64,000 nucleotides of DNA, taken from the NCBI GenBank assembly GCA_905250005.1, contig CAJNOH010000220.1:1-64000 (forward strand), read 5' to 3'. How positions within the stretch are numbered: the first letter of the stretch is position 1; every line of letters begins with the position of its first letter. The notes under the pieces are model-generated. The model was given only the letters and a program-made list of their open reading frames with translations, did not search any database and had not been told where the DNA came from. Of the stretch, positions 28,746 to 30,623 are shown in pieces. This DNA is from Rotaria sordida (lineage: Eukaryota). The position numbers and the translations under genes were made by a program.

Positions 28746-30623
28746 TTACATCTTTTTTACATAATCAATATTATCTATCGTTGTTTTAATTAGAGGATGT
28801 CTTGAGGAGAGTGGTTTTCGTAGAATAGCAAGTGCCCTTTCTAGAAATGAAAAGGCTTTCGAGTAGTTGTCTGTGCCGCTAAACGCCATGCCGATGTTAT
28901 TGTAGGAAGTAGCCAAATGAGGATGATTCTGAGGCAGATTTTTTTCTAAGACTTCATGTGATTTTGCGTAAAATTCAAGTGCTTTCGAGTAGTCACCCAT
29001 ACCAGTGTCCGACATGAGGTCGCTCCAATCAACGTGATTTGACCCGAGCTCCTGACAAATCACGTTGATTGGAGCGACCTCATTTCGGACACTGATCCAT
29101 ACTCTTGTATAGTAGACCGAAGTCGCTGTAGTAAGAAGCCAATGAAAGATGATCTTCAGGGACTTTTTTCGCTTGGTTTGGAGAGAATTTTCATAAAATG
29201 AAACTGCTTCTTTGTATTGACCTTGACCGTCTTTCAACCCTCCAAGCTGGTAATAGATATGTGTTTTGTCACTGTCGTTGAATGTCTGTTCTAGCAGTGC
29301 GATATACAGTTCTTCAGCCTTGTTGACTTGACCTATTTTAAGTAGCAATTTATTCATACGATGCCACTCAATGCTACCTGATGATTCTTGTCGTATGCAA
29401 TCGGTTAATCGACGGAGTTGTTGGTCATCACCAGACGTAAGTTTAAGATCCACTTCATAAAGCAGACGATTGTTGTCAATTTGTCGAATGTCACCAATTC
29501 GAAAAACTGTGTGCATTGAAAAGAGAATTTCTTCTTCTTCTTTGAAATAACTCATCTCTCGGATGGAGGCAAAGAAAGTCGATGAGACAATGGTATCTAT
29601 GGTCATTTGAAAAAGAATACCGACCATATCGGTTGTTCGTAAGGCATCTTTGGCAAAACGAAGGGAGACATCACGATTTTTACTGGCGGATAAAAAGTTA
29701 TTGAAGGATATAAGTCCACCTTTGTTTTTGACGAGTTTTTCGAAATCTGTTGTCGATAATCCTTGGCCTCTATAAACTTGAAATGCCTTCCTCTTATAGA
29801 GACTGACCTGCCTGCTGTGTAATTGTTCAATTTGCCGGTGGATATCGCATAGATAAAGTCCTATTCTGATGATTATATCACCATCAAGTGTTCTTAGGAC
29901 TCGATTGAGCATTTTGAACGTGAAACATTGGCATGTATACCACCATATCATCAATGTTGGGTAATAGGTACGTTGACATTCATCGATTAGCTTGACTTCT
30001 TTGGTATCGCCCTGATATTGTTCTGAGTAAAATGTAATCAAATCTTTGATGGGTTTTTGGCCATGTTTCATATCAAGGAGTATTTCCTTGAATATTTGTG
30101 AGTATATGAAGGATGGTTCTAGCTGATTAAGATTTTCGCTAGAACCTCCTTCATTGATATCAACAATACTGGCTGTTATTCGGTCTTGATTGCATTGTTT
30201 GGCAGCCATTTCTAAGGCTTGACATATTGGTTTGATTGAAGTATGGACACATTTTATTTTTGTCCAGTTTTTGGCCCATACTTCATGCCGTTGTTTGTCA
30301 CCACAAAAGATGTAGATGGCATCAAGTTTTGGGATTCCATGAATACTTGGTACAAGATGTTGTCCAAGTGCACCAGAGGAGATGACGAATGTTGACTTCT
30401 CATTGTTTTTCTGGAGTTTCTCGATACATTGTTCGATTGTTGTGCATGTGATGACGTTATCAACGACACAGCGCAATTGCACAAGAGTATGTCGACAATC
30501 TTCATTTGCCATGTCGATATTACCATCGACCCAGATAACCAGATAATTTTCAGCCATGCGTCGTCTTTGTCGCATGATAGCTGATGAGGCTGTTGTATTT
30601 TGTTTGGATTTTTGTCCACCCAT
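28746..30623 (-). CDS. Intronless N-myristoylated arginine mono-ADP-ribosyltransferase (R-S-E clade) with an N-terminal alpha/beta domain of unknown function and C-terminal kinesin-light-chain-type TPR repeats (625 codons)
   Basis: Single uninterrupted ORF. The N-terminus MGGQKSKQ fits the myristoylation consensus (M-G-x-x-x-S plus Lys). The ADP-ribosyltransferase catalytic triad motifs are present in order: Arg in FQVYRGQGL, S-x-S in NFLSASKNRDVS, and the EEE of SYFKEEEEILFSMHTVFRIGDI (compare EEEVLIPP of ecto-ARTs and C2/C3-like toxins). The C-terminus has TPR_12-like units (GQYKEAVSFYENSLQ..., GDYSKALEFYAKSHEVLEKNLPQNHPHLATSYNNIGMAF, DNYSKAFSFLERALAIL). GC is about 40% against 20-25% in neighbouring genes, with G/C-ending codons such as ctg/gcc/tcg. 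An AATAAA signal lies 27 nt past the TAA. Confidence 0.85.
   Translation of the reverse strand: MGGQKSKQNTTASSAIMRQRRRMAENYLVIWVDGNIDMANEDCRHTLVQLRCVVDNVITCTTIEQCIEKLQKNNEKSTFVISSGALGQHLVPSIHGIPKLDAIYIFCGDKQRHEVWAKNWTKIKCVHTSIKPICQALEMAAKQCNQDRITASIVDINEGGSSENLNQLEPSFIYSQIFKEILLDMKHGQKPIKDLITFYSEQYQGDTKEVKLIDECQRTYYPTLMIWWYTCQCFTFKMLNRVLRTLDGDIIIRIGLYLCDIHRQIEQLHSRQVSLYKRKAFQVYRGQGLSTTDFEKLVKNKGGLISFNNFLSASKNRDVSLRFAKDALRTTDMVGILFQMTIDTIVSSTFFASIREMSYFKEEEEILFSMHTVFRIGDIRQIDNNRLLYEVDLKLTSGDDQQLRRLTDCIRQESSGSIEWHRMNKLLLKIGQVNKAEELYIALLEQTFNDSDKTHIYYQLGGLKDGQGQYKEAVSFYENSLQTKRKKSLKIIFHWLLTTATSVYYTRVWISVRNEVAPINVICQELGSNHVDWSDLMSDTGMGDYSKALEFYAKSHEVLEKNLPQNHPHLATSYNNIGMAFSGTDNYSKAFSFLERALAILRKPLSSRHPLIKTTIDNIDYVKKM
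29003..29096. mobile_element. 94-bp palindromic (hairpin) MITE-like insertion inside the ADP-ribosyltransferase-TPR coding sequence, flanked by a 6-bp direct duplication
   Basis: Arms cagtgtccgacatgaggtcgctccaatcaacgtgatttg (29003..29041) and caaatcacgttgattggagcgacctcatttcggacactg (29056..29094) are reverse complements with 1 mismatch, separated by a 14-bp loop. Flanked by ccatac at 28997..29002 and 29097..29102 (GTATGG on the coding strand). Removing insertion plus one duplicated copy restores ...LLYKSM|GDYSKALEFY, a normal TPR junction. Confidence 0.45.

Follow-up and report, generated by a model that had tools for sequence, protein, structure and literature searches.

In some algae and other eukaryotes, spliceosomal introns arise from introner elements, which are transposons resembling MITEs. 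Translational bypassing elements are known from gene 60 of phage T4 and, as the 'byps', from the mitochondria of Magnusiomyces. Compensated frameshifts occur in young pseudogenes and redundant paralogues. Elements of the hAT type are recognized by an 8-bp target-site duplication (TSD) and YARNG termini (PMC3014272), and they prefer targets of the form nTnnnnAn (PMC10368747). The Rickettsia palindromic elements (RPEs) and other intragenic prokaryotic MITEs are palindromic selfish DNA that lies in genes and is translated, with the ORF remaining open (PMC10969869). In bdelloid rotifers, the TPR families are greatly expanded (PMC3846280). Coding sequence that carries a transposable element insertion and has an intact second copy has been reported in these animals, in which transposon activity and its fitness cost are of theoretical interest because bdelloids are putatively ancient asexuals (PMC7943196). 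Here we describe a locus in a 64-kb window (the whole stretch of DNA that was analysed), where a 92-bp palindrome lies within the TPR region of an ADP-ribosyltransferase (ART)-TPR gene.

The locus resembles animal hAT MITEs (hAT-N) in having a short, non-coding element with YARNG-type terminal inverted repeats and an 8-bp TSD, one copy of which fits nTnnnnAn (PMC3014272, PMC10368747). In contrast to those elements, its 92 bp consist almost entirely of one hairpin, the TSD copies agree at 7/8 positions, and neither an autonomous partner nor a second copy was identified in the accessible data; the assignment is structural only. As with the RPEs, palindromic DNA in a gene is translated and the ORF stays open. 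However, RPEs are bacterial, about 150 bp long, multicopy, in frame by themselves and often situated at surface-exposed positions, whereas the host here is an animal, the 100-nt insert is not a multiple of three and the ORF is open only through a second mutation. The likeness to introners lies in an element with terminal inverted repeats and a TSD in an exon, with a duplicated target that begins GTATGG, like a 5' splice site. The 100-nt insert, on the other hand, is without an AG or a canonical boundary pair, and its removal with the assembled A6 run breaks the frame. Bypassing elements also place a G+C-rich hairpin in A+T-rich coding sequence, with short direct repeats as possible take-off and landing sites. 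Here, by contrast, the gene is nuclear and belongs to an animal, the gap measures 100 nt and the matching codons come into register only in a hidden frame that goes unused in the assembly; nothing indicates bypass at the ART-TPR gene. As in compensated frameshifts, two near lesions sum to a multiple of three and leave a long ORF containing a short scrambled stretch, but one of the lesions here is a transposon with its duplication and not a small indel.

The ART-TPR ORF (28746..30623, minus strand) is a single exon of 625 aa, as defined by the ORF list, Pfam, homologues and motifs. It encodes an N-terminal arginine-type ADP-ribosyltransferase domain and then a short C-terminal TPR array (Pfam ART PF01129 and TPR_12), and the ART motifs YRGQG, SAS and EEE are present. 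There are 3034 homologues at E<=1e-20, the best of them from Rotaria spp.; these nearest relatives share at most 73% identity with the ORF. By homology, the ORF is a member of a large bdelloid-rotifer ART-TPR family. Its C-terminus is native and agrees with paralogue P0046 in the alignment, and outside the region of the element and the A-run the ORF carries no other lesion. No TPR remnants are present 3' of the stop in any frame, and the 64-kb window contains no paralogue that might have acted as a gene-conversion donor. Exact-protein look-ups of the 625-aa ORF and a neighbouring 935-aa ORF, aimed at alleles and other assemblies, returned no record.

The alignment with paralogues places the switch of the native frame between KRK(K) and VPEDH. 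The switch coincides with an A6 run and the following G (AAAAAAG on the coding strand; 29163..29169, minus strand), the proposed site of a 1-nt loss, which is seen on the plus strand as T6 at 29164..29169. When 29003..29102 is deleted and one A is added, a 592-aa ORF reading ...QTKRKKVPEDHLSLASYYSDFGLLYKSMGDYSKALEFY... is obtained, which aligns with the Rotaria paralogues without gaps and column for column (LPEDHPSLA..Y.NIG..YN.MGDYSKALEFY). The Pfam TPR_12 score rises from 71.7 bits as assembled to 89.5 bits after this repair. A previous sequence-only reading had claimed that the missing half of the TPR is encoded in another frame; the gap-free repaired translation and the higher TPR_12 score bear this out, as does the colinearity with Rotaria paralogues, a comparison it had put forward as a check. 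It had also claimed that a 1-nt change at the A-run offsets a +1 shift and keeps the ORF open, and the reconstruction by deletion and addition agrees. With A7 and the element kept, translation stops at ...KSMDQCPK*, and with A6 and the element removed there is a frameshift followed by a stop.

The missing base sits in the codon between AAA (K) and GTC (V). A change from A7 to A6 is simplest, and loss of the G from AAG-G or of the C from ACA gives the identical sequence. A -1 indel anywhere in the 140 nt upstream of the element would keep the ORF open, and this rescue stretch, in its reconstructed A7 form, has the A-run as its longest homopolymer. The native frame reaches a TGA five codons inside the element. 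Among 22-codon windows read in the wrong frame in the 625-aa gene, 29% are stop-free, and one of the three sense frames is open across the element. The joint chance of an open frame across the novel stretch is about 0.1, so the open stretch is not improbable in itself.

The inserted palindrome, delimited by inverted-repeat search and folding, comprises 92 bp (29003..29094) and has the ends CAGTG...CACTG. A hairpin had already been recognized here, although its extent was given as 94 bp (29003..29096). The two 46-nt arms are 91% complementary and consist of 39-nt arms with one mismatch and a 14-nt centre that contains GAGCTC. The predicted folding energy is -48.1 kcal/mol as DNA (z = -15.1 against shuffles) and -75 kcal/mol as RNA. 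The G+C content of the element, by our own count from the sequence, is about 50%, compared with 22-38% in the 2-kb bins of the window and 37% around the gene. The element contains no transposase gene and has no coding capacity of its own; stops occur in five of the six frames, and the sole stop-free frame is the one used by the ORF. No Rfam family reached its gathering threshold, the best being mir-23 (33 bits against 52), and all of these look like generic hairpin matches.

Two 8-bp copies of the target, read from the sequence, directly abut the palindrome. The copy that is upstream in gene orientation lies at 29095..29102 (ATCCATAC; GTATGGAT on the coding strand) and the downstream copy at 28995..29002 (ACCCATAC; GTATGGGT on the coding strand). 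They match at 7 of 8 positions and differ by one transition; by our own estimate, a match of at least 7/8 has a chance of about 4e-4. The shared CCATAC (28997..29002 and 29097..29102) had been taken for the whole of the flanking direct repeats, which are indeed there but extend over 8 bp rather than 6. Because the 8-bp duplication abuts the palindrome, the element corresponds exactly to the 92-bp palindrome. Element and duplication thus add 92 + 8 = 100 bp, a +1 shift, in agreement with the earlier figure and with the frame reconstruction. The downstream copy encodes ..ATG GGT, the M and G of the conserved MGDY motif, and this G is invariant among the aligned paralogues.

Both ends of the element read CAGTG and fit the YARNG terminal motif. 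The upstream copy GTATGGAT (= ATCCATAC) fits nTnnnnAn, and GTATGGGT has a G at position 7 and encodes the family-conserved Gly. The 8-bp TSD and the YARNG-type ends suggest that a hAT-type transposase most probably mobilized the 92-bp element. Duplications of 8 bp are not confined to hAT: those made by P elements and by some Mutator and Merlin elements are of similar length. The TSD of the 92-bp element is imperfect.

The 22 native codons VPEDHLSLASYYSDFGLLYKSM, which form helix A of the interrupted TPR in the repaired translation and alignment (29098..29163, minus strand), are now out of frame. The assembled ORF contains 54 novel codons, SLKIIFHWLLTTATSVYYTRVWISVRNEVAPINVICQELGSNHVDWSDLMSDTG (29001..29162, minus strand). 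The sequence-only reading was right that conserved residues had been swapped for unrelated ones, although 54 replace 21 and not 49 about 27. AlphaFold gives a pLDDT below 50 at residues 487..543 of the ORF, compared with 78-96 in the flanking TPR helices, implying that the 54 novel residues are probably unstructured. When the translations of the element in three reading frames were used as queries, no protein sharing words with them was found among 5.8 billion sequences.

On balance, we favor with moderate confidence a recent transposon insertion combined with a real 1-nt deletion in a redundant ART-TPR paralogue. A short non-autonomous DNA transposon would have entered the ART-TPR exon within a TPR motif, separating the codons of ...YKSM from those of GDY.... 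This palindromic MITE would, with its duplication, have added 100 nt and a +1 shift. One nucleotide would have been lost in or next to the A-run 68 nt upstream of the element, shifting ribosomes by -1. Translation would then run out of frame through 22 native codons, pass the element in the single frame that lacks stops and regain the native frame at the downstream TSD copy, because -1 + 100 = 99. The predicted product of 625 aa would have an intact ADP-ribosyltransferase domain and two intact TPR blocks, with 54 unrelated residues in place of 21 native ones as the joint. The geometry of the insertion and of the frame is plain from the sequence. We infer that the 1-nt loss is a real mutation, located where the 140-nt rescue stretch is most prone to slippage, and that this member of a highly redundant family was damaged recently and is either tolerated or in decay. 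An intact homologous copy possibly masks the lesion, and expression is probably reduced by the predicted RNA hairpin of 39 bp. Gene damage of this kind is ordinary, if preserved here with unusual neatness, and nothing calls for a new mechanism. The locus would represent a clean, datable case of a cut-and-paste transposon striking a bdelloid-rotifer coding exon. It further indicates that a pair of disabling lesions can offset each other, so that a long ORF with one scrambled segment is still annotatable; cases of this sort can mislead automated annotation and the counting of pseudogenes in large gene families.

A clearly less probable account accepts the insertion and attributes the compensation to an assembly error. 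The true run would then be A7, the product would end at ...YKSMDQCPK* (514 aa) without the last TPRs, and the 625-aa ORF would be accidental. Indel errors classically fall in homopolymers, the native frame is clean as far as the element if the run is A7, and a stop-free novel stretch of the chance calculated above needs no special explanation. In the neighbouring 5.5 kb of TEP1-like exon sequence, however, all homopolymers of 6-8 nt (11/11) are in frame and the sole break of the ORF is a canonical 73-nt intron. Since these neighbouring runs are all in frame, the assembly quality looks good and the error rate per run looks low. The error would moreover have had to hit the one longest run of the 140-nt rescue stretch.

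It is somewhat less likely again that, once the insertion had truncated the protein, the 1-nt deletion was a selected rescue of the C-terminal TPR block, in which case the protein would be functional and the 54 element-encoded residues would be tolerated, or would even have been exapted, as a linker. The ART motifs, the downstream TPRs and the native C-terminus are all preserved and the ORF has no other lesion, and a -1 shift is the only single-step route past the element that also restores the frame. The arms and the duplication differ at 2 of 47 paired positions; if this reflects about 2% divergence per copy, a neutral ORF of 1.9 kb would, as a rough estimate, probably have acquired more stops or indels. 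This age estimate derives, however, from two differences, and the element may have been an imperfect palindrome at insertion. The protein itself speaks against a rescue, as helix A of the TPR is destroyed and its replacement is predicted by AlphaFold to be disordered. At the RNA level, a 39-bp stem (-75 kcal/mol) likely impedes translation or triggers RNA silencing, and in a family with thousands of members only weak selection is expected on a single copy.

It is very improbable that non-canonical splicing, ribosomal bypass or somatic excision takes out the hairpin, before decoding or in the course of it, and so allows the native TPR to be made. Excision of exactly 100 nt between the duplicated GTATGG would restore the motif YKSMGDYSKALEFY, and identical ATG-G 'take-off' and 'landing' sequences flank a very stable hairpin, as in the bypassing elements of phage T4 gene 60 and of yeast mitochondria. 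With the assembled A6, however, exact removal leads to a frameshift and a stop, and the unconventional removable element that the sequence-only reading had listed among its explanations is incompatible with this run. Boundaries of the GT-AG, GC-AG or AT-AC type are lacking in all seven possible registers. A -1 slip at A_AAA_AAG would reach the hidden frame, but a TGA follows five codons into the element. Animal nuclear genes are not known to have any such mechanism. If A7 is real in the organism and the assembled A6 an error, the hairpin might direct a non-canonical excision of RNA, or the transposon might be bypassed by ribosomes or excised somatically from the DNA, all in a nuclear gene of an animal, a chance that we regard as slimmer still. 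In that case a TPR gene that is perfect in other respects would be interrupted by a 100-nt unit, a very stable hairpin between identical ATG-G sequences, whose exact removal would restore the protein; the nearest parallels would be the mitochondrial 'byps' and T4 gene 60.

Individual routes of decoding were also considered. For spliceosomal removal, the seven 100-nt registers have the boundaries GT..TG, TA..GG, AT..GT, TG..TA, GG..AT, GA..TG and AT..GG, none of which is canonical, and an enumeration of GT/GC-AG introns yielded none of 100 nt. Those GT-AG introns that would keep the frame either remove conserved TPR residues or depend on poor sites. The slippery heptamer A_AAA_AAG is present in the 0 frame, within CGA AAA AAG (29169..29163). 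Programmed -1 frameshifting was rejected, given that the hairpin lies 68 nt downstream of the heptamer in place of the usual 5-9 nt and that the -1 frame has only 27 codons and ends at a TGA inside the element. Translational bypass was likewise rejected, as only the hidden frame brings the two ATG-G copies into register, and in the assembled frame landing 100 nt further on results in a frameshift and a stop.

A search of the 64-kb window with a 26-mer and a 19-mer of the arm, allowing up to 3 mismatches, recovered only the element itself, and there is no further CAGTGTCCGA end in this window. A 21-mer of the arm has no match in JGI metagenome contigs, IMG/VR or GTDB genomes, collections that do not include the source genome, and blastn with the element against plasmids found nothing. 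Paired CAGTGTCC ends are absent from about 100 kb of Rotaria sp. Silwood-1/2 DNA around the paralogues. The arm is thus absent elsewhere in the window and its G+C content is above that of the surroundings, which argues against a local duplication. The earlier label 'MITE-like' suits the inverted repeats, the TSD, the small size and the non-coding nature of the element; a multicopy family, the defining property of MITEs, is suggested only by the similarity of termini and is not demonstrated, as searches of the accessible data gave no second copy.

Elements with related termini were sought by a gapped end-to-end scan of metagenomes (CAGTGTCCGA N55-85 TCGGACACTG), which returned 18 loci, 16 of which are unrelated hairpins in contigs of 34-70% G+C. 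The AT-rich contigs L002 and L015 carry CAGTGTCCGACATGGG... elements that share the 14-nt terminus of the 92-bp element and GACCCGA motifs. One of these two contigs is from a bdelloid, with the element in an intron and orthologues that lack it; the divergence among the orthologous introns is too great for an empty site to be defined. Neither the L002 nor the L015 element is surrounded by a clean duplication. In viral contigs, the 16-mer terminus gave 11 single matches, none with a partner end and all at 43-64% G+C, which we take to be chance matches.

That the palindrome is not a transposon, and is an amplification or assembly chimera or arose when a double-strand break underwent repair or template switching, processes of which perfect palindromes are a known signature, has scarcely any likelihood: no other copy of the arm appears in any accessible data, yet inverted chimeras copy local sequence and this arm has no counterpart in the 64-kb window and a foreign base composition, neither process explains a 7/8 duplication of 8 bp that exactly brackets the palindrome, the 14-nt terminus recurs in elements of other AT-rich contigs, one of them bdelloid, and a second foldback in the window carries the 8-nt terminus at its ends. 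An absence of other copies had been expected to favor a template-switch duplication; the unique G+C-rich arm, the TSD and the terminus common to other hairpins weigh the other way.

Judged by their termini, the 92-bp element and its relatives with the CAGTGTCC terminus may constitute a bdelloid group of hairpin transposons, unmatched in the collections searched. The 8-mer CAGTGTCC occurs five times in the 64-kb window against 0.37 expected, and four of the five copies are at the ends of its two strongest palindromes. The second foldback, which shares the 8-nt terminus, is 557 bp long and is situated 4.4 kb from the element.

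The ORF at 28746..30623 (minus strand) is a single-exon reading frame of 625 aa, in which Pfam identifies an arginine-type ADP-ribosyltransferase domain (PF01129) followed by TPR_12/TPR_10 repeats. The window is A+T-rich (22-38% G+C per 2-kb bin) and the neighbours of the ORF are animal genes: TEP1-like, Kir potassium channel and doublecortin. The TEP1-like (telomerase-associated protein 1) gene at 14299-23000 (minus strand) encodes TROVE, DUF4062, P-loop NTPase and WD40 propeller parts. At E<=1e-20 the ORF has 3034 relatives in a set of 5.8 billion proteins, and the named relatives among the matches listed are all from bdelloid rotifers. 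The best come from Rotaria sp. Silwood-1/2 and R. sordida, with at most 73% identity over the N-terminal domain, and the Adineta relatives mostly show about 45-57% identity. Exact look-ups of the ORF's protein and of a neighbouring 935-aa ORF had no match. The ADP-ribosyltransferase motifs YRGQG, SAS (STS in paralogues) and EEE are all present; paralogue alignment indicates that the C-terminus is the native one, and no TPR remnants were found past the stop codon.

An inverted-repeat search identified a 92-bp palindrome in this ORF (29003..29094) with 46-nt arms that are 91% complementary, which resolve to a 14-nt centre containing GAGCTC between arms of 39 nt that carry one mismatch. Its folding energy is -48.1 kcal/mol as single-stranded DNA (z = -15.1) and -75 kcal/mol as RNA. 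The ends are CAGTG...CACTG, and both are adjoined by a direct repeat of 8 bp, GTATGGAT versus GTATGGGT (28995..29002 and 29095..29102; 7/8 positions equal). The element is the 92-bp palindrome exactly, and 92 + 8 gives 100 nt. A TIR element that has YARNG-type ends and lies exactly between the copies of an 8-bp duplication bears the structural signature of hAT transposons (PMC3014272); the insert resembles them in its duplication and CAGTG ends. The hAT target pattern nTnnnnAn (PMC10368747) is matched by one copy of the duplication and not by the other, which in the paralogue alignment encodes the family-invariant Gly of MGDY. Of 47 paired positions in the arms and duplication, 2 differ, which makes the insertion young compared with the divergence of the paralogues; this estimate is too coarse for a selection test.

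The coding strand carries a run of six A (A6) at 29164..29169. When 29003..29102 is removed and one A is added, a 592-aa ORF with ...YENSLQTKRKKVPEDHLSLASYYSDFGLLYKSMGDYSKALEFY... results; six Rotaria paralogues align to it gap-free (consensus KRKTLPEDHPSLA.TY.NIGL.YN.MGDYSKALEFY), and the Pfam TPR_12 score rises from 71.7 bits as assembled to 89.5 bits. Seven A (A7) with the element kept stop translation at ...KSMDQCPK*, and A6 without the element gives a frameshift followed by a stop. The missing base belongs to the codon that separates AAA (K) from GTC (V). Shortening of A7 to A6 explains it most simply, but an identical sequence would follow if the G of AAG-G or the C of ACA had been lost. 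As assembled, exactly 54 residues (29001..29162) replace 21 native ones. The sequence-only reading had proposed a swap of about 49 residues for 27 and a 6-bp repeat, GTATGG on the coding strand. The replacement and the repeat are both real, but the counts are 54 for 21 and the repeat is 8 bp long. Its main observation and interpretation are supported with these corrections, to which the 92-bp length and the hAT-like features of the element are added.

One of the three frames of the element is stop-free on the coding strand and none on the other. Ribosomes in the native frame would run into a closed frame of the element (QCPK*), and an upstream -1 shift would place them in the element's open frame; the native frame is restored after the element because -1 + 100 = 99. 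Since such a shift both opens the element and restores the native frame, it is the only single-step rescue. Any position within the 140 nt preceding the element would serve, a zone in which the A-run of the reconstructed A7 sequence is the longest homopolymer and therefore the likeliest slippage site. Wrong-frame 22-codon windows of the ORF are stop-free in 29% of cases, which with one element frame in three gives a joint chance of an open path of about 0.1. The open ORF alone does not by itself demand selection.

We consider it probable that a hAT-like MITE inserted recently into a redundant paralogue that also underwent a real 1-nt deletion at the slippage-prone run, the copy being tolerated or decaying. 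Bdelloids have strongly expanded TPR families (PMC3846280), and a transposon insertion into a coding sequence of R. magnacalcarata has been reported together with an intact second copy (PMC7943196), so tolerance of a damaged copy is unremarkable. An assembly error at the A-run is a priori unlikely: in 5.5 kb of TEP1-like exons, 11/11 homopolymers of 6-8 nt are in frame and the two largest exons are separated by a canonical 73-nt GT-AG intron, which is the only ORF break there, and base-level quality therefore looks good. Selection for the 1-nt deletion as a rescue is slightly less likely again. The locus is a useful case for annotation and for studies of transposon activity in bdelloids.

That the element is removable is very improbable. 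Exact 100-nt removal has seven possible registers across the duplicated GTATGG, none with GT-AG, GC-AG or AT-AC boundaries; enumeration of GT/GC-AG introns yielded none of 100 nt, with A6 removal breaks the frame, and splicing of the insert was rejected. The coding strand at 29163-29171 (CGA AAA AAG) holds a slippery A_AAA_AAG heptamer in the 0 frame, created or left by the 1-nt loss. A -1 slip there enters the native TPR frame, hidden as assembled, which ends at a TGA five codons into the element; the heptamer is therefore probably a coincidence. The hairpin lies 68 nt away versus the usual 5-9 nt, and programmed frameshifting was rejected on both grounds. Ribosomal bypass with take-off and landing at the duplicated ATG-G works only in the hidden frame, which is unused as assembled. 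None of the removal, frameshift and bypass readings survives with the assembled sequence.

In an AlphaFold run on the last 204 residues (alignment of 17 paralogues), residues 487..543 have pLDDT below 50, with 10-residue block means mostly 36-44, versus 78-96 for the TPR helices on either side. This prediction suggests that the product would be an ADP-ribosyltransferase domain and two short TPR blocks, with a floppy 54-residue linker replacing one TPR helix. The 39-bp perfect stem in the mRNA likely hinders translation or feeds RNA silencing; an Rfam search of the element gave only sub-threshold miRNA-like hairpin matches.

An artefact or template-switch palindrome is the least credible explanation: with up to three mismatches, the window holds only the element's own copy of the arm, and its G+C is about 50% by count, well above the surroundings, which rules out a local inverted duplication. 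Searches of JGI metagenome contigs, IMG/VR and GTDB genomes, collections that do not include the source genome, returned nothing for a 21-mer of the arm. The element had no blastn match in plasmids, its translations shared no words with any predicted protein among 5.8 billion, and paired element ends were absent from about 100 kb of Rotaria sp. Silwood-1/2 DNA. When the metagenomes were scanned more loosely for inverted pairs of the 10-nt ends, 18 loci came up, 16 of them unrelated hairpins on contigs of 34-70% G+C. The other two, both on JGI contigs, L002 (Ga0116229_10133771, 513-596; contig 26% G+C) and L015 (Ga0116227_10257612, 835-937; 28%), are short G+C-rich elements with ends CAGTGTCCGACATGGG...TCGGACACTG, the first 14 nt identical to the terminus of the 92-bp element, and with GACCCGA repeats, a motif also at its centre. 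Both appear to lie within short introns. The L015 host gene is EDRF1-like, its named relatives are confined to Adineta and Rotaria, and orthologous introns are without the ends. The 8-mer CAGTGTCC has five occurrences in the window (0.37 expected), four of which mark the outer ends of its two strongest palindromes: the 92-bp element and, 4.4 kb from it, a 557-bp foldback (33488..34044; 244-nt arms, 98% complementary; ends CAGCAGTGTCCAAGG...) with no clean target-site duplication. Taken together, the terminus-sharing elements, the 8-mer excess and the hAT-like structure favour membership in a group of bdelloid hairpin transposons whose termini are related. By these termini, this particular sequence is a candidate, if unproven, multicopy element.

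Unrelated-looking hairpins at five scan loci (L001, L005, L009, L010 and L013; contigs of 51-70% G+C) also start with CAGTGTCCGAC, past which the palindrome runs in two; this may reflect a widespread end motif or a composition bias. The foldback holds a third partial copy of its terminal ~35 nt at about 33731-33767. A solitary GCAGTGTCCAG at 59463-59473, 10 nt identical to the foldback end and with no convincing partner, could be either a truncated end or a match by chance. Four other inverted-repeat pairs of MITE-like size (2704-3505, 12236-12894, 43360-43801 and 57173-57797; 440-800 bp overall, arms of 28-84 nt, 74-86% complementary) have termini unrelated to CAGTG.
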